From positions 32,210 through 96,209 of the forward strand of contig CAYSDZ010000008.1 in NCBI GenBank assembly GCA_964429915.1: a stretch of DNA of 64,000 nucleotides. Direction: 5' to 3'. The notes under the pieces were generated by a model, which did no database searches, was not told the origin of the DNA, and was given only the letters and a program-made list of their open reading frames with translations. Below are positions 4,388 to 37,611 of this stretch, one piece after another. Position 1 is the first letter of the stretch, and every line of letters begins with the position of its first letter. The position numbers were made by a program, and so were the translations under genes. Source of the DNA: an uncultured Alteromonas sp. (lineage in GTDB: Bacteria > Pseudomonadota > Gammaproteobacteria > Enterobacterales > Alteromonadaceae).

Positions 4388-5386
4388 ATGTACATTAACG
4401 AATTTAACAAAGACAATTTTCAGCAGCTAATAGACAGTTATAACACCGCACTTTCGACGTCCTTTACCTCCCCGATAAAGGCGGTTCAAAAAGCAGGCGA
4501 GGGGAATATGAATTTCACTTACAGGGTGTTTTTTGAATCAGGTAAATCTGTCATTATCAAACAAGCCCCGCCTTTTTGTGCAAAATTCCCCGATATTGCA
4601 GCACCTCAGCAACGCATCGGTACGGAATCTTATTTTTATCAATTAGTGTTGGCTCAATCAAGCTTGGACCAATTTTTTCCCAATGTCATACATTACGATG
4701 ATACGCGACATATATTGTTGATGGAGGACTTGGGGAATGCCAATGACTTTACCGCGTTGTATCAAGGGAAGCCCTTACACGATAAGGAAGCGACTCAGCT
4801 AGTTGCGGCGCTAACAGCCATTCATTCGATAGAACTTGATACCCCAATTGAAAATAGTGGTATGAAAACGCTGAATCACGCACACATTTTTGATATCCCG
4901 TTGACTCGAAATAACGGCCTTAATTTAAATGACATCACTTCTGGCTTGGAAAACGAAGCAAAAAAACTGATTTGCGATGCAAAGTATAAAGGTTTGGTGT
5001 ATGAGTTAGGGCAAGTGTATTTATCGTCCGGAAAGCGTTTACTGCATGGCGATTTTTACCCAGGAAGTTGGCTAGCCTGTAAAAATAATGTGGCGATCAT
5101 CGACCCTGAGTTTTGTTTTTCAGGTGCGGTAGAGTTTGATCTAGGTGTTATGCTCGCGCACCTTGTATTAAGCGAGCAAAGCGAGCAGTTGATTAACTCA
5201 GTGGTAAAGGCTTATTCGCCTAAGCAGCGTTTCGATTTGGATATGGCCTTGATGTTCTGTGGAGCGGAAATAATGCGTCGTTTAATTGGCTATGCCCAAT
5301 TGCCACTAGCAAATTCGATTCAAAATAAGAAGCAGTGGCTAGAGATGAGTATGGCGCTAGTGCGTGACCCTAAAATGATTTGGTAA
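4388..5386 (+). CDS. 5-methylthioribose kinase-like phosphotransferase (APH/ChoK fold)
   Basis: GEGNMNFTYRV, IIKQAPPF, LLHGDFYPGS, IIDPEF and GAEIMRRLIG match MtnK-type motifs; ATG at 4388 (TTG at 4385 also possible). Confidence 0.75.
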   Translation: MYINEFNKDNFQQLIDSYNTALSTSFTSPIKAVQKAGEGNMNFTYRVFFESGKSVIIKQAPPFCAKFPDIAAPQQRIGTESYFYQLVLAQSSLDQFFPNVIHYDDTRHILLMEDLGNANDFTALYQGKPLHDKEATQLVAALTAIHSIELDTPIENSGMKTLNHAHIFDIPLTRNNGLNLNDITSGLENEAKKLICDAKYKGLVYELGQVYLSSGKRLLHGDFYPGSWLACKNNVAIIDPEFCFSGAVEFDLGVMLAHLVLSEQSEQLINSVVKAYSPKQRFDLDMALMFCGAEIMRRLIGYAQLPLANSIQNKKQWLEMSMALVRDPKMIW

Positions 5387-5696
5387 CAGACAAACGAATA
5401 ATGGCGTTACCTTCGTGCAATAACGGGTTATTAATGGTGCTAAAATTACTGCGCGTTAATCCATCGTATGACGGGCGCATTACCGCTACGTCTAAATGGA
5501 GTTTTTCTTTTACAGACGTCATTAATTCACGTGACAAGCCTTGCTTTAGCTTGGTGTACGCCGAACTGTTTATTTTAGTGTCAGCTAACGAGTCGAGTTC
5601 AGATGAAAGTAAATTCGCAGGATTCGAAAAAAGCGTTTCTTTTGCTTCACAAAGTTGAATCGATAAACATATTACAAAAGCACATAACCACTTCAT
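5370..5696 (-). CDS. Small exported hypothetical protein
   Basis: Signal-peptide-like N-terminus, C-terminal IIRLSVTKSF; converges on the kinase gene with a 17-bp overlap. Confidence 0.55.
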   Translation of the reverse strand: MKWLCAFVICLSIQLCEAKETLFSNPANLLSSELDSLADTKINSSAYTKLKQGLSRELMTSVKEKLHLDVAVMRPSYDGLTRSNFSTINNPLLHEGNAIIRLSVTKSF

Positions 5697-19435: not shown

Positions 19436-21691
19436 TTATTGTTGTTCTGATTTAGAAAAAAGAATAGTGTCGCATGTTCGAAACAAAATAGGAATGTCAA
19501 TAGGCTTACCAATATGCGCACTGAATCCTGCTTGCTCGTAACGTGAAATATCCTCGGCGTAAACATTAGACGTCAGTGCAACAATAGGAATTGTCGGATA
19601 AGCAGCTTTGATCTGCCTGCAAGCATCAACACCGTCCAGATTCGGCATTTGAATATCCATTAAAATTAAATCAAAGTGTTGTTTGTGGGTTGTTTCAATG
19701 GCTTCGACTCCATCATGAGCAAAAACGAGTTGAGCCTGAGAAGGTGCAAGCATAGATTCAATAATGGCTCGGTTGATTTCATTGTCTTCAGCAATAAGAA
19801 AACGTTTGCCTGAATAGTCTGACTGTGGTTCAGCTAGCGTAGCTTGGGGTTGTGTAGGTTGTTTGGATGCCGTTAAGGGCAAGCTCACAATAAAACGAGC
19901 GCCTTTCCCCAACTCACTGCTCACCTTTATAGAACCGTTCATCATATCAACTAATGACTCAGTAATAGCCAAGCCAAGGCCCGTACCACCAAACTTTCGC
20001 GTGGTTGATTCATTGACTTGCTCAAACCGAGAAAACAACTTGTTCAATGCCTCATCGGGAATACCTATCCCAGTATCACTCACTTCAAAACATAATTGCG
20101 TTGAATCGATAAGATGCAGTTTCACCTCACCTTGTTCGGTAAATTTTACTGCGTTACTGCATAAATTAAGCACGATTTGTTTTATTCTTACTGGGTCGCC
20201 CAACCAACCATCACAAAAATTTTGATCGACCTTGACGGAAAAACTCAACGGTTTCTTTTGAACTAAAGGCGCGAGATCAGACTCCACCGACCTAACCACG
20301 TCAAGCATTTCAAAGTGAAGCGTTTCAAAAGTCAATTTTCCAGCTTCTATTTTTGAGTAGTCTAAGATGTCGTTAATAATGGTCATTAAATTGTGGCTAG
20401 AAAAAAGCGCTTTTTCAATTAGATGCAAGCTATGCCGCTCGCTAGTGCGGTTTTGAATGAGTTGCAAAGCACCGTGAATACCATTTAGGGGCGTACGTAT
20501 TTCGTGGCTCATATTCGATAAAAAAACAGATTTTGCGGCATTCGCCGATTCAGCTTCTTTCTTAGCAGATTCTAGCTCGCCTGTTCTTTGTATTACCAGT
20601 CGCTTCAAATTTTGGTTAAACCAATGCTGCCCCAACGAATAAAAAAGAATGATTGTGGTAATAAAAGCCCCGATAGCGAGATAGGTTTTGTTAAAGGTAT
20701 AGGCTTCTGTATTGTAATCATCTAAAAACAAGCCATTTAAATTTAACTGATTTTGCATAATGCCTAAATCTTTATAAGTTTGTGCAATACGTTCAAATCG
20801 GGCAGGAAATAAGGTACCTATTTGCACAAACTTGGGCTTGATAAGGCTTTCAATCACTTCAGCTTCGTCTAAAAGACGGGATAGAGGTATGTTTGCACCG
20901 TATTGTTCGATAATGACTTTGGCAATTTCCGCTTTATTCTCAAGTGCATACTTCCAACCTTTTCTCGACGCTTCTGTAAAAGCTTCTACGTCAGTTCGGT
21001 TATTTTTGACGTACTCTTCAGTTGTAAATAGTAAGTCACCATAAAAGTCGATACCGTAGGAAGCGGGGTCGATTATGTTGATGTCAAACTTTTTATCGGC
21101 ATAGTATAGGGGCTGGTCTGAACGATAGGCAGCCATTAAATCTGTGACGCCTTCAATTAAAGCATCATCATCAAAAGCTTGTGGTATGTACTCATAATCT
21201 TGTTCCTCTAAGCCCGCGAATAATAGCAAAGCTTGCAGAGAGGCGTCGTCAATGTTTTTTTGAAACATAATTGAACGACCGCGTAAATCGTACGCACTCA
21301 CAATATCTTTTTCTTTCAAAGACATAAAAACAAGCGGGCTTGTTTGAAACACAGATGTGGCGATTACCACAGGGTGACCATTCAAACGATGCAAAACGAT
21401 GCTTGAATCAGACAAACCGAACTGTGCTTCGCCCGTTAATACTGTTTCAAGCGGAGAACGGCTACCATCGTGTTGTTTTATGCTTACATCAAACCCTGCT
21501 TGGTCATAAAAACCTTTGTGCTTGGCAGCGTAATAACCTGCAAATTGGAAGCTATGAAACCACTTTAGTTGCAGGGTGACAGGTTCTTGAGCTGTACACG
21601 AAAATGCAGCAAGAAAGCAAAGAGCCACCGACATTGCAGCAATCAAAACTATTCGTAGAACCATTAAAATAAGACTTTGTTTTACCGTCAA
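19436..21691 (-). CDS. Hybrid sensor histidine kinase / response regulator with an NMT1/THI5-like periplasmic binding domain
   Basis: QLKWFHSFQFAGYYAA; H-box FLSNMSHEIRTPLNG; NLCSNAVKFT, DTGIG, GGTGLGL; REC DLILMDIQMP. Confidence 0.93.
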   Translation of the reverse strand: MTVKQSLILMVLRIVLIAAMSVALCFLAAFSCTAQEPVTLQLKWFHSFQFAGYYAAKHKGFYDQAGFDVSIKQHDGSRSPLETVLTGEAQFGLSDSSIVLHRLNGHPVVIATSVFQTSPLVFMSLKEKDIVSAYDLRGRSIMFQKNIDDASLQALLLFAGLEEQDYEYIPQAFDDDALIEGVTDLMAAYRSDQPLYYADKKFDINIIDPASYGIDFYGDLLFTTEEYVKNNRTDVEAFTEASRKGWKYALENKAEIAKVIIEQYGANIPLSRLLDEAEVIESLIKPKFVQIGTLFPARFERIAQTYKDLGIMQNQLNLNGLFLDDYNTEAYTFNKTYLAIGAFITTIILFYSLGQHWFNQNLKRLVIQRTGELESAKKEAESANAAKSVFLSNMSHEIRTPLNGIHGALQLIQNRTSERHSLHLIEKALFSSHNLMTIINDILDYSKIEAGKLTFETLHFEMLDVVRSVESDLAPLVQKKPLSFSVKVDQNFCDGWLGDPVRIKQIVLNLCSNAVKFTEQGEVKLHLIDSTQLCFEVSDTGIGIPDEALNKLFSRFEQVNESTTRKFGGTGLGLAITESLVDMMNGSIKVSSELGKGARFIVSLPLTASKQPTQPQATLAEPQSDYSGKRFLIAEDNEINRAIIESMLAPSQAQLVFAHDGVEAIETTHKQHFDLILMDIQMPNLDGVDACRQIKAAYPTIPIVALTSNVYAEDISRYEQAGFSAHIGKPIDIPILFRTCDTILFSKSEQQ

Positions 21692-21768
21692 TTATTGTTA
21701 TTTAAGCATAGACTAGGCATCATACGGTGCATAGCGTTTATTAATTTAAGTTCTTTATTTCCGAGTTT

Positions 21769-23094
21769 ATGCTGCACTCTTTATTAGTTCCGTTAAACAA
21801 CGTAAAAGGGAAGGGTGATTTTTGTGCTGAGCTTGAGATAGGAGAGCCGTCGCAGTTGCAAACCCTGCTACTAGACTCAGGCAGTAGCTCACTTGTGCTT
21901 TCTCCTCAACACTACGATGCCTCCATTGATCAAAGGATTGAGCCCACCACGCTATGTCAACATGTAAAATACGGTGTGGGCGAATGGTTAGGCCCAGTAG
22001 TAAGCAGTCAAATTACCATCGGTACAGGGCGGCATAAGGCCACTATTCGATCGGCTTTTTTTGCAATAGCCGAAGAACGCAAAGCGAATACCTTTGTGCG
22101 AACAAGCGGTATACTAGGCTTGGCTTATGAACCGCTGAATACTGCACATGATTTGTCGATAAATACCTTTCCATGGCGGCCAGAGTGCAGCGAAAAAGTC
22201 CAATCAGAACTTTTCTTGCGGAAGGTGTTAAACAGCCCGAAAAAACAAGTAAATACATTTTTTAGTCAATGTGTTGAACAGGGTATCGTGCCTGATCAAT
22301 TTGGCTTTTTAGTGCATCGTTCATCGGTGTTTCATTCTAAAAATAAGGAAACATCAGAGCAATTAAGCGCCCACCCACTGAATCAAGGGATGCTAGCCTT
22401 AGGCAAGCCTCATTTGCATACGCAGTTGCACAAAAACGATTTTATTCATATACCGCTAGTTTGCGATAAATACTACAATGTGAATTTATTAGGCGTGAAG
22501 GTAGAGAGCCAAGCCATGCTGACTCCTCCTCCTTTCATTGAACACAAAAGCAAGCCCAGTAACAGCAATTGCTTTGTAGATAGTGGTGCTAATGCTATTT
22601 TGTTGCCTGAAAGCCTGTTTACTGAACTTATGCAGAATTTGGCTCAGGCCGTACCTCATCAAGCGCATTTATTGTCGGCTTACCAGCAATACAACGGCAA
22701 GGAAGTGGGCATTCCTTTAAATAACCTGAACTTGTCTGAATGGCCCAATATTCAGTTTACCTTTAGCGGTAGAAAGGGGCGCAGCGAAAGCTTAATTTTA
22801 ACCCCTTATAGTTATTGGCAAACGCATGCACCTGAATGTAATCAGGCAAGTTTTAAAATAACGACGTTGCCGGGCTGGCAAGCTCAAACGATTTTAGGCC
22901 TGCCTTTAATGTGTGAGTATTACACGATATTTGATCGTCAAGCAGGTGACAAAGGTGCATTAGTATTTGCTAGCCCTAGGGTAGCTCCCCATCGTTTAAG
23001 CGACGTATTACATCACGACTGGAAAGCGATGCAGTCATTATGTAAGCATTTTTTCAAACGCGTTAATAAAAGACACAACAAAAAACAAGAGTAA
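21769..23094 (+). CDS. Pepsin-like (family A1) aspartic protease, shewasin-like, no signal peptide or propeptide
   Basis: Two catalytic motifs LLDSGSS and FVDSGAN, flap YGVG, psi-loops GILGLAY and TILGLP. Confidence 0.9.
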   Translation: MLHSLLVPLNNVKGKGDFCAELEIGEPSQLQTLLLDSGSSSLVLSPQHYDASIDQRIEPTTLCQHVKYGVGEWLGPVVSSQITIGTGRHKATIRSAFFAIAEERKANTFVRTSGILGLAYEPLNTAHDLSINTFPWRPECSEKVQSELFLRKVLNSPKKQVNTFFSQCVEQGIVPDQFGFLVHRSSVFHSKNKETSEQLSAHPLNQGMLALGKPHLHTQLHKNDFIHIPLVCDKYYNVNLLGVKVESQAMLTPPPFIEHKSKPSNSNCFVDSGANAILLPESLFTELMQNLAQAVPHQAHLLSAYQQYNGKEVGIPLNNLNLSEWPNIQFTFSGRKGRSESLILTPYSYWQTHAPECNQASFKITTLPGWQAQTILGLPLMCEYYTIFDRQAGDKGALVFASPRVAPHRLSDVLHHDWKAMQSLCKHFFKRVNKRHNKKQE

Positions 23095-23101
23095 AAGCAA
23101 T

Positions 23102-23932
23102 ATGACTCAAACCAAAGCAGGCTCCTTAGTGTGCGTAGGCACAGGCATGACTCTCGGGGCGCACATAACCCCCATAGCAAGAAGCCACATAGAAAATGCA
23201 GACATTGTTTATTGTTCTGCCGCAACGAGCTTGATGGAAGAGTGGATTATGTCGATGAATACCAACACCATCAGCTTGCAACATTACTATGAAGAAGGAA
23301 AAGATCGACGCCACACTTATAAAGCAATGGTAAATACACTACTGTCTTCGCTACGAAAAGGAATGCATGTGGTGGGCGCGTTTTACGGGCACCCGGGTGT
23401 TTTCGCAAAAGCGCCACACGACGCGGTCGCACAAGCCAAATCGGAAAGCTTTCATGCTCATATGGAAGCCGGTATATCAGCAGAAGCCTGTTTGTATGCC
23501 GATATGGGGATAGACCCAGGGAAAGTGGGGTGTCAGCATTATGAAACCACACAGTTTATGCTATATGAGCGCACTATCGACCCATCGGCTTATCTTATTT
23601 TATGGCAAATTGGCTTGGCCGGAGACCGACAAGCACAACAATTTACTACTGAAAATGCGTATAGAACGGTATTAAAAGAACAGCTTATTAGCTTGTATTC
23701 CCCTCAACACAACATCGCAATTTATGAAGCAAAATCTCTACCTACCGACACAATACGCATTGAATGGCTGGCCTTATCAGAATTAGACAAGGCTAGCGTT
23801 TTTCAACACAGCACTTTAGTGATACCGCCGATCAGCGCTCCAATTATTAATCCAAGGGCCGAGGCGCTACTCGCCGATATCGCCAGCAACAGCGTTGTTA
23901 TAAAACAGTCACAAACAGACAGTAATTTTTAA
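23102..23932 (+). CDS. Borosin-type peptide backbone alpha-N-methyltransferase (SonM-like, tetrapyrrole methylase fold)
   Basis: GSLVCVGTG, YYEEGKDRRHTY, FYGHPGVF, GISAEACLYADMGIDPG, LILWQIG, IYEA and STLVIPP align by eye with SonM/OphMA methyltransferase motifs. Confidence 0.9.
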   Translation: MTQTKAGSLVCVGTGMTLGAHITPIARSHIENADIVYCSAATSLMEEWIMSMNTNTISLQHYYEEGKDRRHTYKAMVNTLLSSLRKGMHVVGAFYGHPGVFAKAPHDAVAQAKSESFHAHMEAGISAEACLYADMGIDPGKVGCQHYETTQFMLYERTIDPSAYLILWQIGLAGDRQAQQFTTENAYRTVLKEQLISLYSPQHNIAIYEAKSLPTDTIRIEWLALSELDKASVFQHSTLVIPPISAPIINPRAEALLADIASNSVVIKQSQTDSNF

Positions 23933-23943
23933 AGGGTGAAGAA

Positions 23944-24504
23944 ATGGTGGACAGAGTTTTTGAAACATCACGATTTTTGTGCACGCCTGTGCAACAAAGT
24001 GATAGCAATTTCGTTCGAAGCCTTTATCAATCATCTTCACGTATGGCGCACTTAGGTGGTGTTTTTTCACAGCAAAACGCTCAAGCGCTGTTTGAAAAAA
24101 TGCTCGATGCCAACACCAAGCTATTTAGCTCAGAGTCTAGCTCAGAGTCTAGTTCAGGATATTGGCTAATTGAAAATAAAAACACAGGCGATAAGATGGG
24201 GGTGCAAGGAATAAGCGCAGTCACTTCGCTGCTTGCAACGGCAGAGGTCGGGATAATTTTAAATGAACAAGCAGAAGGAAAAGGCACACCGTTTGAAGTG
24301 TTAAGTGCGATGTTTAGTTATGTGTTTTCATCATTGGGTGTAGAATTATTAATTGAACGACACGTCATTTCCAACAAAGCTATTGGTAGGGTATCGAGAC
24401 GTTTGGGTTTCAACCATACTGTTGCGGTTAAATATAACGATACACCATCTGAACTCTCGGTGTTAGAGAAAAAAGACTGGTTGAAACAGTCATATTGTCA
24501 GTAA
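23944..24504 (+). CDS. GNAT N-acetyltransferase (RimJ/RimL-like)
   Basis: FETSRFLCTP, AEVGIIL…AEGKG, N-KA…RRLGF. Confidence 0.8.
   Translation: MVDRVFETSRFLCTPVQQSDSNFVRSLYQSSSRMAHLGGVFSQQNAQALFEKMLDANTKLFSSESSSESSSGYWLIENKNTGDKMGVQGISAVTSLLATAEVGIILNEQAEGKGTPFEVLSAMFSYVFSSLGVELLIERHVISNKAIGRVSRRLGFNHTVAVKYNDTPSELSVLEKKDWLKQSYCQ
24126..24157 (+). repeat. In-frame 12-bp tandem repeat inside the GNAT gene
   Basis: TAGCTCAGAGTC x2 plus TAGTTCAG, encoding SSESSSESSS. Confidence 0.9.
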
Positions 24505-24583
24505 CGTAACTCGTGATTTGGTTAAATCCACAAAAAAATAACAACACATTTATCAATAACAAAAAACAAAAAAGGAAACAGCA

Positions 24584-24814
24584 ATGACAGCAATTCAACT
24601 TTTAGAACAACTGGGTTCCTCTGCAGCACTTCAGCGCCAAGGTTGTGCCCATGCCGATGCCATTCGTGCACAGGCTATGCAATATATCGATACTATTGAT
24701 ACGCCTATCAAACAGTGGTGTATTCTATTTCCGGCAGAGGATGAGCAAGCTAACGACAATCAAGAAGACAATTCGCAAAATGATAAAGAAAAAGAAAGTG
24801 TCAAACTTAATTGA
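24584..24814 (+). CDS. Candidate split-borosin precursor peptide (76 aa)
   Basis: RBS AAGGA; N-terminal LLEQLGSSAAL resembles the borosin-binding-domain start; hydrophobic IKQWCILFPA followed by an acidic tail; lies in the methyltransferase operon. Confidence 0.7.
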   Translation: MTAIQLLEQLGSSAALQRQGCAHADAIRAQAMQYIDTIDTPIKQWCILFPAEDEQANDNQEDNSQNDKEKESVKLN

Positions 24815-26547
24815 TTTTCTGTAAATATTCTTTCAGTTTCATATTAATATTGGCTGCTCTGATTGGTGGCCAAGTCTATGGAGAAAATCTTGATGATATT
24901 TTTGCTGCGGCAGATGATTCTAGAACGTCGAATATAAGAAAATTTGCCGAGCTTTTAAATGTCCTTGGAAATAGAAAAAATGAGTTTTCAGATTATCAAA
25001 TTGATTACTTTACTTACCTTGACATTTATAAAGACTCTCTTAGCGGAGAATATATCGAATCAATTGAAAGACACAAGGAGTTGGTAAATCAGTCTGAGTT
25101 TACCGATATTAAATACAGGTCCACCTACTCAATCATTTCTATGTATGGTGTAATGCGAAAATTTTATGAAGGTGCGCAATTACTAAATAGATTGGATGCC
25201 TTAAGTCGTAAGATTGATGACCCTAAAATTTTAAACGGTGGTGAAATAACAAAAGCTATCTTTTATCAAGAGGCTAACCAATATCAACTTGCATTTAGCA
25301 TAGCCATGCAATTAACACAAAAAAGCTTGCTACCTCGCTCTAAGTGTATCGTTAGCGCTGTCCTAGTTGAATCTGCTTATTATATTGAAGCTGAACCAAT
25401 CGGTATGGGGTTCGTAAATGAATCTGAACTTTATTGCAATAGCATTGGTGAAGCGTTTTTGGGAAGTTTTATATCGATTACCAAAGCAAAAATGCACGTA
25501 GATGCTAAGCAAAATATTGAAGCACGGCAAACCCTAGAAAAAATCGAAAAAGTAGTAACAGAAACCAATTACCCAAGATTAAGTGCTATGTATTACGCGA
25601 CCAAAGCAGAGGTGCTGTATTCGCTTGGCAATTTCGAGGCGGCTATATCAAGTGCCCAGTTAGCTCTGGGACAATCAGCACAAGCAAAATTCAACAAGCC
25701 TCTTGTTTCATCCTATCTTACCTTGTCGAATATTGAACACGCGCGAGGTAACTATAAAACAGCGCTTGACTATCACAAGAGCTATGTAGCAGCAGACAAG
25801 GCGTACGACAGCGAATTGCAATCTAATCAACTGGCGTTTCAACGCGCACAATTTGAGTCTGAACTCAATGCCAGAAACTTAGAACTGGCCTACGCAGAGA
25901 ATGAATTATTATCGGCAGAGGCGATAACGGCTAAACAAGAGGCAAAAAATAGTTTGTTAGCAGCAGCACTGGCAATATCTGCCTTAGCCATTGTGTTCGT
26001 CAGCTTTTACCGCACCCATATCAACAAGAAAAAGTTTAAACAATTAGCTGAAACCGATGGGTTAACAAAATTAAAAAATCGGCGAGAGTTTTGTAAGCGT
26101 TCACAAGAAGCAATAGATTTCTGTCACGCCGGAAAGCATGCTATTAGCATGATTATTTTGGATTTAGATCACTTTAAACAAATCAACGATACTCATGGAC
26201 ATGCAGCGGGAGATGCGGTTCTAAAGTCGGTGTCGGCGTTACTGAAACAAGAATGCCGTCAAAACGATATTGTCGGTCGTTTAGGTGGCGAAGAATTTGG
26301 CATAACGTTGCCTAGTTGCGACGGTGACAAAGCTCGTTTTATAGCGGAAAGCTTAAGACAAAAAATTGAAGCCTTGCCGATTTCGCATAACGAAAAGGTG
26401 CTTAGCGCAACAGCAAGCTTTGGCATTGTCGAAGGAAAAGACAAACTACTTTCCTACGACGCATTGTTCAATGAAGCGGATGCCGCCCTTTACCAAGCCA
26501 AACATGCAGGAAGGAACAGAGTTCAGCTTATTGAAATTTCACTTTAA
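24811..26547 (+). CDS. Periplasmic-TPR / TM / GGDEF diguanylate cyclase
   Basis: Signal or TM N-terminus, TPR-like helices, TM ALAISALAIVFVSF, DGLTKLKNRR, DLDHFKQINDTHGHAAGD, RQND I-site, intact GGEEF. Confidence 0.92.
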   Translation: MIFCKYSFSFILILAALIGGQVYGENLDDIFAAADDSRTSNIRKFAELLNVLGNRKNEFSDYQIDYFTYLDIYKDSLSGEYIESIERHKELVNQSEFTDIKYRSTYSIISMYGVMRKFYEGAQLLNRLDALSRKIDDPKILNGGEITKAIFYQEANQYQLAFSIAMQLTQKSLLPRSKCIVSAVLVESAYYIEAEPIGMGFVNESELYCNSIGEAFLGSFISITKAKMHVDAKQNIEARQTLEKIEKVVTETNYPRLSAMYYATKAEVLYSLGNFEAAISSAQLALGQSAQAKFNKPLVSSYLTLSNIEHARGNYKTALDYHKSYVAADKAYDSELQSNQLAFQRAQFESELNARNLELAYAENELLSAEAITAKQEAKNSLLAAALAISALAIVFVSFYRTHINKKKFKQLAETDGLTKLKNRREFCKRSQEAIDFCHAGKHAISMIILDLDHFKQINDTHGHAAGDAVLKSVSALLKQECRQNDIVGRLGGEEFGITLPSCDGDKARFIAESLRQKIEALPISHNEKVLSATASFGIVEGKDKLLSYDALFNEADAALYQAKHAGRNRVQLIEISL

Positions 26548-27189
26548 TGATACGCCAGCTTCGTTAACATCAAGAACATCTGTTTCAGTGCTGGCTTCAT
26601 CTAGCCAACGCTGAATAGCAGCACTGTTCAATACTTTGGATTGATATTGCTTTGCATTTTCTGATAGTGCTACGTTGTAGGTTTTAAATCTCAACGCAAC
26701 TGGGGCAAACATCGCATCGGCAATACTCCAATCATCAAACAGCCAAGCGTTTGGGAACAGTAGCATTTGTGTAGACCAAATTTGATCAATGCGCGCGATG
26801 TCCTTGGCTAACCCTTCCGTTATTTCGACTTTGCGAAGGGCGCGGCAGTTCATTGGCATTTCGTTACGTAAGTGAATAAAACCGGCATGCATTTCAGCAC
26901 TCAAGGCGCGAGCTTTGGCTCTTAGTGCTCTGTCTTTTGGCCATGCCTTGTGGTCTAAGTAAGTTTCATTCACATATTCTAATATCGCAAGCGATTCCCA
27001 TACTGCTATGTCGTCGTCCAGTAAGGCAGGCACTTTTCCAGACGGAAACTCTTTTCCAAGCGCATCGTAGAAGGCTTGGGTCATTAGCGTTAATTTTTCT
27101 ACTTCGACGTCAAGATTGTATTGATCAAAAATAAGCCAAGCACGCAATGACCAGCTAGAATAATTCTGATTTGCAATATAAAGTTTCAT
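26539..27189 (-). CDS. Glutathione S-transferase family protein
   Basis: NYSSWSLRAW, GKVPAL, WESLAILEY, SAEMHAGF, FSIADAMFAPV-like. Confidence 0.92.
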   Translation of the reverse strand: MKLYIANQNYSSWSLRAWLIFDQYNLDVEVEKLTLMTQAFYDALGKEFPSGKVPALLDDDIAVWESLAILEYVNETYLDHKAWPKDRALRAKARALSAEMHAGFIHLRNEMPMNCRALRKVEITEGLAKDIARIDQIWSTQMLLFPNAWLFDDWSIADAMFAPVALRFKTYNVALSENAKQYQSKVLNSAAIQRWLDEASTETDVLDVNEAGVSLK

Positions 27190-27420
27190 TTGTATTCCTC
27201 TAAATGACCAGAATAGGTTGCATCATTTTTGCTCTTAGTAAAGGGGAAAGAGCAAATAACATACAAAAATAAAACATAGATTTGTACGACAAATGACGAA
27301 TCTATGGGGTGTATGGTAGCGCGCAATTTCAACGATATGATAAGTTTATTAACAAAGCAAAGAAATCAACATCTTATAAAAATAGTCAGTCACGACAAGA
27401 CCTTCAATAGGAAATCCAGT

Positions 27421-32967: not shown

Positions 32968-35625
32968 ATGCACACATATACCAAACTGAGCTGCGCGATT
33001 TTAGCGGCTTTGTCTACTGGCTCAGTACTCGCCCAGCAGTCACAAGCAGAAAAACCACCAAAAGCAGAGATAGAAACCATTGAAGTAACCGCAACGAAAA
33101 GAACAGAATCCATCCAAGATGTTCCTGTTGCAGTTTCTGCCTTAAGTGGCAAGGCGCTAGACCAGTTGGGTGTAGACAACTTTCAAGACTACGTTGAATT
33201 CCTACCTAATGTCGTGTTTCAAGGCACAGGACCCGGACAAAACGAAATTTATATTCGCGGTGCGGCTACAACTCAAACAGGAATAGCAGTTTCATCGGTT
33301 CAGGCTATTCAACCTGCCGTCGCATTTTATTTAGACGAGCAACCCGTTAGTATGCAGGGGCGAAATTTAGATATATTTGCCACTGATGTTCAACGAGTCG
33401 AAGTCTTACCAGGACCTCAGGGTACGTTGTTTGGTGCGAGTTCACAGTCAGGTACGGTAAGGCTTATTACCAACAAGCCAGATCACAGTGGCTTTTCAGC
33501 CAGTGTGGATATTGATACGGGGTTTACTCAAGGCGGAGAACTGAGCAATACCGTTGAAGCAATGATGAATTTGGCGCTGACCGATAAACTAGCAGTACGA
33601 GTGGCCGCTTATAACGACCGACAAGGTGGATGGATAGACAACATCGCAAATGATCCTAATAACGGCGGTTTCATAGGGAGTGCGGTGGTTATCGATCGTA
33701 TTTCAGGTGGTGTTTTGGCAGACCCAGAAAATACCCCAGTTGCGCCTCCTAATAACGATGAATTGGTTGAAGACGACTTTAACGACGCAGTGTACAGTGG
33801 TGCACGGTTGGGTTTGTCGTATTTAATAAACGACGATTGGTCATTACTGCTGCAACACACAGAGCAAACTCTGGAAACGGAAGGCGTGTTTGCTTACGAT
33901 CCCAATTTGGACGGCGAAAGCTCAACTAATCGTTTTATTGATGAAGGTAACGAAGACAATTTTGGCCTAACCACATGGACCTTGGAAGGTCGATTGAATC
34001 AGTTAGAAATCATCTATACCGGTGGATATTTAAATCGCGATATCAATTCGACTATCGATTACACAGGCTATACCAATGGTGGTCTATTTTCCGCATTTTA
34101 TACCTGTTCTTACGCAGGACTTCCGGCAGAGGAACAAGCTTGTTTTGACCCTACTGGGTTTTATCAAGAAGACACAGAAACCAACCGTATCACCCACGAA
34201 TTACGTGTTGTTACAGATGCGGATAAGCGCTGGCGCGTAACAGCGGGCTTGTTTTATGATGACCAAGAAGTCAATACGGTCGGCCAATTCCAATTAGGTT
34301 CGCTAGATATCGAAGGGTTTAGAAACAACAGCACCACACTGGTTGGTACCGAGGGCATCAATAGCGACGGCGGTCCATTTGGTCCAGAAGTCAGTTTTGT
34401 GAATGATGTACAGCACGCGATTGAACAAATAGCCGTATTCGGACAACTCGATTTTGATATTACCGACAAGCTCACTGCAAGTTTTGGCGCTCGTTGGTAT
34501 CAGATTGATGATATTTATCGAGGCTCAACGTCGACGGTAGATGTTACGCGCCGCATTCGGGCCTTTGGCACCTTAGATCCCGATGAACTGCGAGCGGTTG
34601 GAGAAGATCCAGTATTGGTCAATGAAGCCATAAATAATGGGCAGCTAGATGTCAGTTTATTGGGCAGTGATGGGGTGTTAACCGTTGACGATACGATTTT
34701 TAAATTTGGCTTAGATTACAAAGTATCTGATGATATTTTGGTGTTTGCTAATTACTCAGAGGGTTTTAGACCCCCTGTGACTAACCGAGTGGGTGGTGGG
34801 TTGTCTACCAGTCAACAAGGCGCGTTTGAAGGCTTCCGTATTCCGGTTTATTCCTTAACCGATACGCTAGATAATTACGAAATTGGTTTAAAGGGCGATT
34901 TCTTCGATGGTTTAGTGCGGTTGAATGCAACGGCTTACTACTCACAAATTACTGATTTACAAACGTCTCGATTCGATCCCACCAATATCAGTTTCCTTGT
35001 TTTTACCGACAACGTGGGCGACGCGGAAATCCGCGGCTTGGATGCTGAAATTACTTGGCTTGCAACAGACGACTTGATCATCGACGCAGCATTCAGTTTA
35101 CTTGACACGGAGCTAAGTGCTGTAAATCCAGAATTAGACGGCATTGCACCACCGGTAGGCAGTCAACTGCCTTTTTCTGCCGAATTTAGTGGTAACATTC
35201 GAGCGCGCTATTTCTTTGAACTTTCCGGTGGTTACAATGGCTACATGAATGCGTCTTTGAGCTACACCGGCGATCGACTGACTGGTTTAGTGTCTGACGC
35301 TTTTGTAATGGAAGATGCGACCAGATTGATTTTTGGTCAAGGCTCTGGACTAGAAATACACCAAGACGCGGCTACGTTTGCGGGCGTGAACTACACTGAT
35401 ACTAATGGTAACACGTTCGCAGCAGGGCGTTACGTAGCACAATCATATGTGCTTGCTAACCTTTCGGTAGGTGTGAGTAAAGACGATTGGTCGGCTGAGT
35501 TGTATATCAACAACCTTACCAATGAGAATGCTGAATTATATATCGACACCCAACAATTTACGCCTAAGGTTGTCACGAATCGCCCTCGAACCATTGGGGT
35601 GCGCTTGTCTTACGACTTCTATTAA
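32968..35625 (+). CDS. TonB-dependent receptor
   Basis: IETIEVTATKRTESIQDVPVAV, VEVLPGPQGTLFGASS, C-terminal RPRTIGVRLSYDFY. Confidence 0.95.
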   Translation: MHTYTKLSCAILAALSTGSVLAQQSQAEKPPKAEIETIEVTATKRTESIQDVPVAVSALSGKALDQLGVDNFQDYVEFLPNVVFQGTGPGQNEIYIRGAATTQTGIAVSSVQAIQPAVAFYLDEQPVSMQGRNLDIFATDVQRVEVLPGPQGTLFGASSQSGTVRLITNKPDHSGFSASVDIDTGFTQGGELSNTVEAMMNLALTDKLAVRVAAYNDRQGGWIDNIANDPNNGGFIGSAVVIDRISGGVLADPENTPVAPPNNDELVEDDFNDAVYSGARLGLSYLINDDWSLLLQHTEQTLETEGVFAYDPNLDGESSTNRFIDEGNEDNFGLTTWTLEGRLNQLEIIYTGGYLNRDINSTIDYTGYTNGGLFSAFYTCSYAGLPAEEQACFDPTGFYQEDTETNRITHELRVVTDADKRWRVTAGLFYDDQEVNTVGQFQLGSLDIEGFRNNSTTLVGTEGINSDGGPFGPEVSFVNDVQHAIEQIAVFGQLDFDITDKLTASFGARWYQIDDIYRGSTSTVDVTRRIRAFGTLDPDELRAVGEDPVLVNEAINNGQLDVSLLGSDGVLTVDDTIFKFGLDYKVSDDILVFANYSEGFRPPVTNRVGGGLSTSQQGAFEGFRIPVYSLTDTLDNYEIGLKGDFFDGLVRLNATAYYSQITDLQTSRFDPTNISFLVFTDNVGDAEIRGLDAEITWLATDDLIIDAAFSLLDTELSAVNPELDGIAPPVGSQLPFSAEFSGNIRARYFFELSGGYNGYMNASLSYTGDRLTGLVSDAFVMEDATRLIFGQGSGLEIHQDAATFAGVNYTDTNGNTFAAGRYVAQSYVLANLSVGVSKDDWSAELYINNLTNENAELYIDTQQFTPKVVTNRPRTIGVRLSYDFY

Positions 35626-35628
35626 ACC

Positions 35629-37611
35629 TTGAATCAGGTTAACGAGACCAACAATAACACGGTACTGGCCAACGCAAAATCTGCGTTGGCAAAAGGCCAG
35701 TTTGATGTTGTTATTACTCTATGCAAAGGCATTTCGTTTGACGAGTTGAGTCGTCAACAATATGTCGATGTTCATTACGTTTTGGCAGTAGCGTTTCGCT
35801 ACACTCAGCAATATGAACAAGCACTCGACGCTTTATCAAGTTTGCAACAAAAGAAGGCTGATCATGCTCGAAGCTGGCAGGAGCAAGGGTATGTGTATGT
35901 TGCGTTAAGTCAATGGAAATCAGCTGCACAAGCTTTTCATCAGGCAACTGTCCTCAATCCTGCATTGGTTACAAGTTGGCGAGCACTGCTTTCTTTATAC
36001 GAAAAACACAATACGATATTTAATGCTGAATTGCTGAAAAATGCCAAACAACAATTTAGCTTTTGGCAAAATTTAGCAAAGCCGTTACAAGGCGCCGCTG
36101 ATTTGCTCTACAGTGAAGAAATTGAGAAAGCCGATAAAGTATGTAGACATTTTTTACAGCAGCATAAACATCATGCCGAGGGGCTGTATGTTCTGGCTTT
36201 GATTGATATTCAAAATAAGCAATACGACGAAGCTGAGTTTTTACTAGAAAGTTGCTGTGAACTCGCACCAAATTTTGAGCGTGCAAGAGCTGAGTACGCG
36301 GCCTTACTAAACCGCATTGGTAAATATCAACTTGCTCTTGAACAGGTACAACAGTTGTTACAAGGCCAAGCTGATAATTTAAGTTATCTGGTATTGTCAG
36401 GCGTAGCAAATGCAGGCTTAGGACACAGCAAAAAGGCGATAGAACAATTTAATTCTGTACTGGCTACAGAACCACAGAGGGCAGGTTTATGGGTGCAATT
36501 GGGGCACGTTCAAAAGTCGCTAGGGAGCTTAGAAGAGGCTCAACATGCTTATAAACAAGCACTGAAATACCGCTCGAACTACGGCGATGCCTATTGGTCG
36601 CTTGCGAACACCAAATCATATCAATTTTCTGAAGACGAACTGAATACAATGCAGCAGTTGTTGCAGACGCCTCTCGCATACGAAGACCGTTATCATATTG
36701 AATTTGCATTGGGCAAAGGCTTCGAAGATAAAGGCGACTCAACCCGAGCGTTTGAATATTATTTGCAAGGCAATACGCATCAATATGAAGTAAGCCAATA
36801 CGCACCAGAGTTATTTACTGAACAAGTCAACCGGCATATTCAGTTTTTTACTCAAGCTTACTTTGAACAACATACCAAAAGCGGCTTTCCAGACCCCGCA
36901 CCTATTTTTATTTTAGGGTTGCCCCGGGCAGGATCAACCTTGTTAGAGCAAATTTTAAGTTCACATTCTAAAGTCGATGCAACCCTAGAGCTGCATAATA
37001 TACTAAGCCTAGCAAAACGCTTGAACAGACAAGGCCAGTACCCAGAAACGTTAGTACAGACTAATCCAGACTATTTTTATCAATTCGGCGAACAATATAT
37101 TCGACAAACAAAAGCCTATCGTAAAGACGGTGTGTTTTTTATTGATAAAATGCCAAACAACTTTCTCCATGTTGGGCTGATAAAACTTATTTTGCCTAAT
37201 GCAAAGATCATCGACGCAAGGCGTGACTCGATGGACTGTTGCTACAGCTGCTTCAAACAGCTTTTTGCTGAAGGACAAGATTTTACCTATGATCTCACTG
37301 CATTGGGGCGTTACTACAAAGATTATGAGAAGCTTATGGCACACTGGGATGAAGTGCTTCCTGGTTTTGTGTTACGGGTTCAACACGAGCAAATCCTTAA
37401 TGATTTAGGCGCGCAAGTAGATCGAATGCTTCACTTTTGCGAGCTCGAGTTTGAAGATGCCTGTTTAACTTTCTACAATAATCAAAGAGCAGTGCAAACA
37501 CCTAGCGCTGCTCAAGTAAGAAAGCCAATTAATAAAGAGGGTGTTGGTAAGTGGAAACCAGTGCAAGATAACTTACAATCTTTGATTCAAGCGCTCTCAA
37601 ACACCACATGA
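35629..37611 (+). CDS. TPR-repeat sulfotransferase-family protein
   Basis: N-terminal TPRs; PAPS-binding PIFILGLPRAGSTLLEQILSSHS; FIDKMPNN; QTPSAAQVRKPI. Confidence 0.9.
   Translation: MNQVNETNNNTVLANAKSALAKGQFDVVITLCKGISFDELSRQQYVDVHYVLAVAFRYTQQYEQALDALSSLQQKKADHARSWQEQGYVYVALSQWKSAAQAFHQATVLNPALVTSWRALLSLYEKHNTIFNAELLKNAKQQFSFWQNLAKPLQGAADLLYSEEIEKADKVCRHFLQQHKHHAEGLYVLALIDIQNKQYDEAEFLLESCCELAPNFERARAEYAALLNRIGKYQLALEQVQQLLQGQADNLSYLVLSGVANAGLGHSKKAIEQFNSVLATEPQRAGLWVQLGHVQKSLGSLEEAQHAYKQALKYRSNYGDAYWSLANTKSYQFSEDELNTMQQLLQTPLAYEDRYHIEFALGKGFEDKGDSTRAFEYYLQGNTHQYEVSQYAPELFTEQVNRHIQFFTQAYFEQHTKSGFPDPAPIFILGLPRAGSTLLEQILSSHSKVDATLELHNILSLAKRLNRQGQYPETLVQTNPDYFYQFGEQYIRQTKAYRKDGVFFIDKMPNNFLHVGLIKLILPNAKIIDARRDSMDCCYSCFKQLFAEGQDFTYDLTALGRYYKDYEKLMAHWDEVLPGFVLRVQHEQILNDLGAQVDRMLHFCELEFEDACLTFYNNQRAVQTPSAAQVRKPINKEGVGKWKPVQDNLQSLIQALSNTT

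Follow-up and report, generated by a model that had tools for sequence, protein, structure and literature searches.

The closest described relative of the locus analysed here is the sam cluster of Shewanella amazonensis SB2B, which encodes shewasin A (SamP), a methyltransferase (SamM1), a precursor (SamA1) and an acetyltransferase of family PF13302 (Lee et al., bioRxiv 10.1101/2024.01.09.574750). SamM1 installs a single α-N-methyl group on Phe52 of SamA1, and SamP cleaves the Phe53-Pro54 bond efficiently only if this methyl group is present, resulting in the release of an unmethylated, anionic peptide starting with PAEDE, the leader of SamA1 ending in the sequence FCVFF (Lee et al., bioRxiv 10.1101/2024.01.09.574750). 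The fragment PAEDEPEKEQQENEEEDEAPKA, corresponding to the C-terminus of SamA1 shortened by three residues, was detected in S. amazonensis, and the authors describe the system as the first case of a leader modification being needed for proteolytic release (Lee et al., bioRxiv 10.1101/2024.01.09.574750). According to the same authors, the final natural product of S. amazonensis is not settled and the GNAT may add something to it; a modification of the SamA1 cysteine was not reported. The type IV split borosin precursor SonA of S. oneidensis yields shewanellamide A, a 16-mer of the sequence DSSYQSYL(Me)VI(Me)SHGNGD, which is released without a protease being encoded in the cluster. The literature describes sequence as no predictor of the regiospecificity of borosin methyltransferases, and GGDEF as the accessory domain most often present in borosin clusters (56%; Imani et al.).

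Here, we provide an analysis of a precursor peptide encoded within a stretch of 64,000 nucleotides of an uncultured Alteromonas sp., referred to as the window. We consider it probable that this peptide enters a sam-type split borosin pathway in which a methyl-licensed, shewasin-like cut releases its acidic tail, because the locus contains homologues of all four genes studied in the sam cluster.

The peptide gene and its cassette

Five genes follow one another on the same strand, encoding an aspartic peptidase, a methyltransferase, a GNAT, the peptide and a TPR-GGDEF cyclase (Table 1). The peptide ORF translates into MTAIQLLEQLGSSAALQRQGCAHADAIRAQAMQYIDTIDTPIKQWCILFPAEDEQANDNQEDNSQNDKEKESVKLN (ORF listing). 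An earlier note, made from the DNA letters, had described this ORF by three strings, all of which we found in the translation: LLEQLGSSAAL (residues 6-16), IKQWCILFPA (residues 42-51, with 41 residues ahead of it) and AEDEQANDNQEDNSQNDKEKE (residues 51-71). The ORF is a real, conserved gene, far above chance, because the substitution pattern, the number of profile matches and the conserved gene order all support it. Over codons 1-54 it differs from the metagenomic relative P0002, which represents loci with about 89% DNA identity to the window locus (L001-L005), by nine synonymous and no non-synonymous changes, and the acidic tails of the two differ by several substitutions and one indel while both being acidic. 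An exhaustive profile search across 1.84 billion representatives, using a query profile built from six homologues, resulted in 35 proteins at E<=1e-3 (12 at E<=1e-10), nearly all of them 65-92 residues long and aligned end to end; word-indexed searches added four further relatives.

The family scans gave neither a Pfam nor an NCBIfam match for the peptide, and searching the PDB sequences with the single peptide or with a 38-sequence profile yielded chance-level matches only, SonA never being among them. In a promoter and terminator scan of positions 21500-27300 the sites were no more numerous than in shuffled sequence. DNA runs allowed us to trace the window locus to seawater metagenomes, and no transcript evidence for the peptide region was found among the RNA runs. 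The representative of the cluster containing the window peptide (P0001) has 79 residues and starts with MTAMTAIQ..., i.e. with an extra MTA; the window codon at the position of this upstream Met is GAA, so the window is not read in this way, the longer form being either a variant or the result of another gene call.

Table 1. Features of the peptide locus and its surroundings (positions in the window; entries marked predicted are transferred by homology)
Feature	Positions	Strand	Basis or remark
Membrane ORF, 417 aa	18313-19566	-	no significant family match; overlapped by the 5' end of the sensor kinase gene
Hybrid sensor kinase	19436-21691	-	NMT1/THI5-like periplasmic domain, HisKA, HATPase_c, receiver; divergent, immediately upstream of the cassette
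Pepsin-like A1 aspartic peptidase, shewasin A (SamP) homologue	21769-23094	+	Pfam PF00026, E 5.8e-16
Stand-alone split (type IV-like) borosin α-N-methyltransferase	23102-23932	+	PDB SonM 7ltc, E 4.9e-68
GNAT acetyltransferase, RimJ/RimL-like Acetyltransf_3	23944-24504	+	Pfam PF13302, E 8.4e-16; weak NCBIfam RimL and RimJ matches
Shine-Dalgarno sequence AGGA	24573-24576	+	7 nt 5' of the peptide ATG, read off the sequence
Precursor peptide gene	24584-24814	+	76-aa ATG ORF, TGA stop 24812-24814 included
Leader, residues 1-49	24584-24730	+	alignment with SamA1; C-terminal patch W45-C46-I47-L48-F49
Cys21 (QGCAH)	24644-24646	+	second Cys of the peptide, in the leader
L48, predicted methylated residue	24725-24727	+	homology to SamA1
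Predicted cut F49/P50	between 24730 and 24731	+	homology to SamA1
Predicted released product, residues 50-76, PAEDEQANDNQEDNSQNDKEKESVKLN	24731-24811	+	homology to SamA1
TPR + GGDEF diguanylate cyclase	24811-26547	+	Pfam PF00990, E 1.2e-43; TPR_12
GST-like gene	26539-27189	-	strand opposite to the cassette
Sortilin/Vps10-type BNR-repeat protein, 1127 aa	27304-30687	+	N-terminal signal-like segment; downstream of the GST-like gene
TonB-dependent receptor	32968-35625		precedes the TPR-repeat/sulfotransferase fusion
TPR-repeat/sulfotransferase fusion	35629-37611	+	PF13469; follows the receptor gene, unrelated to the peptide

We compared the cassette proteins with SamP, SamM1 and SamA1 as given in the supplement of Lee et al. 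(bioRxiv 10.1101/2024.01.09.574750). The peptidase is 35% identical to SamP over 392 columns (BLASTP, E 1e-70) and has both catalytic aspartates, D36 (LLDSGSS) and D271 (VDSGAN), aligned to the SamP catalytic motifs. It also retains the Ala following the second DSG (DSGA), a residue tied to activity near neutral pH (Lee et al., bioRxiv 10.1101/2024.01.09.574750). The methyltransferase, its gene being located 652 bp 5' of the peptide gene on the same strand, shows 50% identity to SamM1 (E 3e-91) and 48% to SonM (E 6e-82), and in the PDB search it also matches the OphMA family with an E-value of about 1e-46. All six catalytic and lock residues of SonM (Y58, R67, Y71, Y93, F99, W166) are kept as Y63, R69, Y73, Y95, F101 and W168. 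A stand-alone methyltransferase of the TP_methylase fold, with the YGHPG motif and the SonM Y58/R67/Y71 set, encoded beside a precursor is the arrangement of the split borosins, and together with the matches to SonM and SamM1 it supports the earlier proposal of a borosin precursor lying next to its own methyltransferase. For the GNAT, no PDB sequence relative was found at E<=0.01.

The cyclase carries a hydrophobic N-terminus (signal or anchor), a single membrane segment further on and, shortly behind an RxxD site (RQND), a GGEEF motif. The TTG start of its gene and the TGA stop of the peptide gene share the letters TTGA (24811-24814), a 4-nt overlap of the two genes, which suggests precursor and cyclase being translationally coupled. 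The next in-frame ATG of the cyclase gene would drop the N-terminal signal or anchor. We found no second methyltransferase or precursor within the window, and the cassette encodes no second protease and no evident transporter. Peptide, methyltransferase and protease are without signal peptides, and the peptide system is therefore presumably cytosolic and reducing.

A compact leader

The leader starts with the conserved N-terminal helix MTAIQLLEQLG. An AlphaFold2 model computed with 37 sequences (pLDDT 76) predicts helices at residues 3-12, 14-17 and 22-36, with an extended segment and then a disordered tail behind them; a model based on a 6-sequence alignment, which gave one long helix of low confidence (pLDDT 65), was set aside in favour of it. 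Searching the PDB with the 37-sequence model by Foldseek resulted in no match. With 49 residues and three predicted helices, compared to a median of 63 residues in the long-leader relatives and five helices in SonA, the leader agrees with the view that the borosin-binding domain is shortened in this peptide; SonA has 61 residues ahead of its first methylated residue. The window peptide is typical of a compact subfamily, in which leaders span 42-53 residues and the median equals its own leader length of 49.

The assignment of the leader as a binding domain, suggested by homology, runs over a transitive profile link. In hhalign comparisons the compact family matches the long-leader relatives with 98% probability (E 1e-13), and these match SonA-like peptides with 83% (E 9e-6), the direct comparison of the compact family with SonA not being significant.

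The compact 'WC' precursors of Alteromonas and Aliiglaciecola (e.g. WP_274742980.1, WP_218312782.1 and WP_286282809.1) belong to the same subfamily, sharing a MSAIQLLEKLG start, a leader of 42-53 residues, a W-C-h-h-h/P site and an acidic tail often ending with I-x-L-[NH]. The RODEO-curated dataset of Lee et al. already lists this type as predicted precursors, and two of its entries are identical to our profile matches P0142 and P0148; judged from sequence the window peptide is a further member. It differs in two respects: apart from its close relatives P0001 and P0002, no representative exceeds 54% identity to it, and it has an extra Cys21, which is shared with P0002, has a nearby counterpart in P0129 and is otherwise not conserved. 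The long-leader precursors of Colwellia, Alkalimonas and most metagenomic loci share with the window peptide the N-terminal helix, a hydrophobic patch in which Cys is usual, an invariant Pro, the acidic tail behind it and the TPR-GGDEF gene downstream. In contrast, their leaders comprise about 63-66 residues with a full SonA-like motif (ITxEQxxAIxxKDxxxLE), their clusters often contain two or three paralogues, and their patch often has CC or no Cys, Trp being rare. The SonA/SonM pair resembles the window in its split architecture, the homologous methyltransferase, an N-terminal helix of the type xxLxQLG and an adjoining GGDEF gene; it differs by a five-helix binding domain of 53 residues and by two methylations (L63, I65) that are kept in the 16-mer.

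The predicted cleavage site and the acidic tail

The window peptide and SamA1 are 35% identical over 54 residues (E 2e-7), and WCILF/PAEDE is in register with FCVFF/PAEDE. WCILF thereby aligns with the end of the SamA1 leader, which argues against QWCILFP as the core, as it had been assigned previously; the Trp/Cys-containing segment and the acidic tail as such had been observed correctly. In an alignment of 38 sequences including SamA1 only two columns are invariant, Cys46 (P4) and Pro50 (P1'). Positions P3-P1 are always hydrophobic, P2'-P5' read A-E-D-[ED] with PAEDE being nearly invariant, and Trp occupies P5 in 31 of the 36 compact members. The invariance of Cys and Trp in the 35 profile matches is partly circular, as the query profile contained both; in a sample selected by the methyltransferase, Cys is still common and Trp hardly occurs outside the compact subfamily, and among the long-leader relatives from Colwellia and metagenomes some have a patch devoid of Cys.

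Shewasin was described to prefer Leu, Phe or Tyr at P1, a bulky residue at P2 and Asp at P4' (Lee et al., bioRxiv 10.1101/2024.01.09.574750), and the window peptide with Phe at P1 and Leu at P2 fits this preference. The features of the sam-type are thus found together: hydrophobic residues at P3-P1, Pro at P1' and an anionic tail starting with PAEDE, a PF00026 peptidase with both catalytic aspartates, and a co-encoded PF13302 GNAT. The methylated residue, the cut and the product listed in Table 1 are predictions transferred from SamA1, whose peptide is only 35% identical to that of the window. Methylation within the acidic tail, as in type VII-IX borosins, was considered and rejected, the SamA1 tail being unmethylated.

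The tail of the window peptide (residues 50-76) contains nine acidic and three basic residues among its 27, giving a net charge of -6. Acidity is common to all tails of the family (median net charge -9), which vary in sequence and have 20-39 residues. The selection pattern, i.e. a frozen leader and PAEDE followed by a variable but acidic tail, fits the cleavage model. The likeness to the sam cluster comprises the PF00026 peptidase, the stand-alone borosin methyltransferase, the PF13302 GNAT and a short acidic-tailed precursor with the cut-site motif aromatic-C-h-h-h/P-A-E-D-E, the tails of SamA1 and the window peptide having 25 and 27 residues, respectively. The two differ in leader length (53 residues in SamA1, 49 in the window), in the residue at P5 (Phe versus Trp), at P2/P1 (Phe-Phe versus Leu-Phe) and at the C-terminus (AVNA versus VKLN), and the window tail has more Asn and Gln and a weaker negative charge (-6 versus -9 in SamA1). 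Moreover, the window has one methyltransferase-precursor pair only.

Conservation of the cassette in other loci

The claim that the peptide would recur next to homologous methyltransferases was confirmed. In L001-L006 and L009-L011 the peptide gene is found in the same place beside a homologous methyltransferase, a PF13302-family GNAT is encoded as well, and the TPR-GGDEF gene directly follows the peptide gene, as it does in most of 80 metagenomic loci. The Alteromonadaceae MAG locus L006 has the same five genes, with a methyltransferase 67% identical to that of the window, and L009 has them with GNAT and methyltransferase in swapped order; that the five genes are kept together in these two loci speaks for a functional cassette rather than an accidental neighbourhood.

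The 80 metagenomic loci were chosen solely via the methyltransferase (49-58% identity) in a metagenome scan with an alignment. A related acidic-tailed peptide is present in 54 of them, usually directly followed by the TPR-GGDEF gene; many contain a GNAT and 12 the protease, many of these contigs being truncated. Scanning genome contigs with a single methyltransferase query gave three loci only, the alignment-based metagenome scan being far more productive.

A model of methyl-licensed release and its alternatives

Our data support a model according to which, by homology to S. amazonensis, the compact helical leader would dock the peptide on the neighbouring α-N-methyltransferase, which would place a single backbone N-methyl group on the patch, most likely on L48 (P2), the equivalent of SamA1 Phe52. 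The cluster peptidase would then read W-C-I-L(Me)-F/P-A-E-D-E and make one cut at F49/P50, resulting in the unmethylated anionic 27-mer PAEDEQANDNQEDNSQNDKEKESVKLN being freed and the methylated patch being left on the discarded leader. The methyl mark would thus act as a licence for cleavage and not be part of the product. We can only guess the later steps: housekeeping peptidases might trim about three C-terminal residues, as in SamA1, and the RimJ/RimL-like GNAT might acetylate the peptide, for which the newly exposed N-terminus is the obvious candidate site.

The earlier note had favoured another reading, in which the natural product derives from an internal core QWCILFP, with the acidic tail as a follower, a second cut needed for release and the Cys serving disulfide dimerisation or other chemistry. 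This would agree with the patch being both the expected place of methylation and the best conserved part of the peptide (C46 invariant, W at P5 in 31 of 36), with SonA, whose methylated residues are part of the product, and with the unsettled final product of the sam pathway. However, we regard it as unlikely. The only specific cut in SamA1 is located right after the patch, the fragment found in S. amazonensis cells is the unmethylated acidic tail, which makes the tail most likely the product rather than a follower, and conservation of the patch beside a tail that varies is what one usually sees where a recognition site precedes a core. A single specific cut suffices in the homologue SamA1, with a possible C-terminal trimming of about three residues, so two cuts are probably not needed, and the cassette has no second protease. 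Disulfide dimerisation was rejected, since the system appears cytosolic, with no signal peptides, the patch is free of Cys in some Colwellia and metagenomic relatives, C21 is not conserved and the SamA1 cysteine has no reported modification.

According to a second alternative, the peptide would be a small acidic regulatory protein, its processing controlling the coupled TPR-GGDEF cyclase, and no natural-product precursor at all. The position of the cyclase gene directly after the peptide gene in nearly every locus, with the 4-nt overlap in the window, would suit such a role, as would the frequency of GGDEF domains in borosin clusters (56%) and the cassette having no evident transporter. We judge this alternative improbable as a replacement, as the TPR part of the cyclase is predicted to be periplasmic and the peptide is apparently cytosolic; it is moreover compatible with the sam-type release of the tail, concerning the role of the product and not its making.

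There is also a small chance that the invariant Cys (P4) and the near-invariant Trp (P5) are more than a recognition patch in the compact subfamily, either replacing contacts of the missing helices or enabling Cys chemistry, e.g. acylation by the GNAT. If such Cys chemistry takes place, the N-methylated W-C-I-L-F leader end would be a second functional product beside the anionic tail.

Finally, a SonA-like fate, in which a housekeeping cut upstream of W45 would yield the whole C-terminal part with the methylated patch kept on the acidic tail, has the precedent of S. oneidensis, where shewanellamide A keeps two methyl groups, and a window methyltransferase about equally close to SonM (48%) and SamM1 (50%), but is very unlikely, since the son cluster has neither the pepsin-like protease nor the GNAT present in the window cassette, and the invariant P1' Pro and PAEDE match the shewasin site and not SonA, which has no acidic tail.

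If the homology model of methyl-licensed tail release holds, the window would be a further marine, Alteromonadaceae-like case of a leader modification licensing the release of an unmodified anionic peptide, a logic reported in 2024. It would also indicate that 49 leader residues with three predicted helices are enough for this arrangement, which helps to define the minimal methyltransferase-docking element. The window locus adds support for the P4 Cys and the P1' Pro as fixed points of the cleavage site.

Variation among the precursors

Two family members end just after the patch, P0130 with …QWCGVVVPDF after 53 residues and P0134, without Pro, with …QQWCVIFVEDEQKLH after 57 residues; these may be frameshifted or degenerate copies. 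In six of the loci chosen via the methyltransferase (L022, L024, L029, L058, L059, L068) the acidic-tail precursor is present as a tandem pair and/or the TPR-GGDEF gene is present twice, the window having one of each. In L036 (about 4812-5588) and L070 (about 1721-2146) a single peptide has two hydrophobic-Cys patches with an acidic stretch following each, as in ...NSVCCMIYAPEQEGEEKTRPADNVCCLIYAPEGEEQ... and ...NNVCCALMYDDHEEDD...SNMCCLMVCGDGDEDE..., and such double-patch peptides may apply the same cleavage logic to more than one core.
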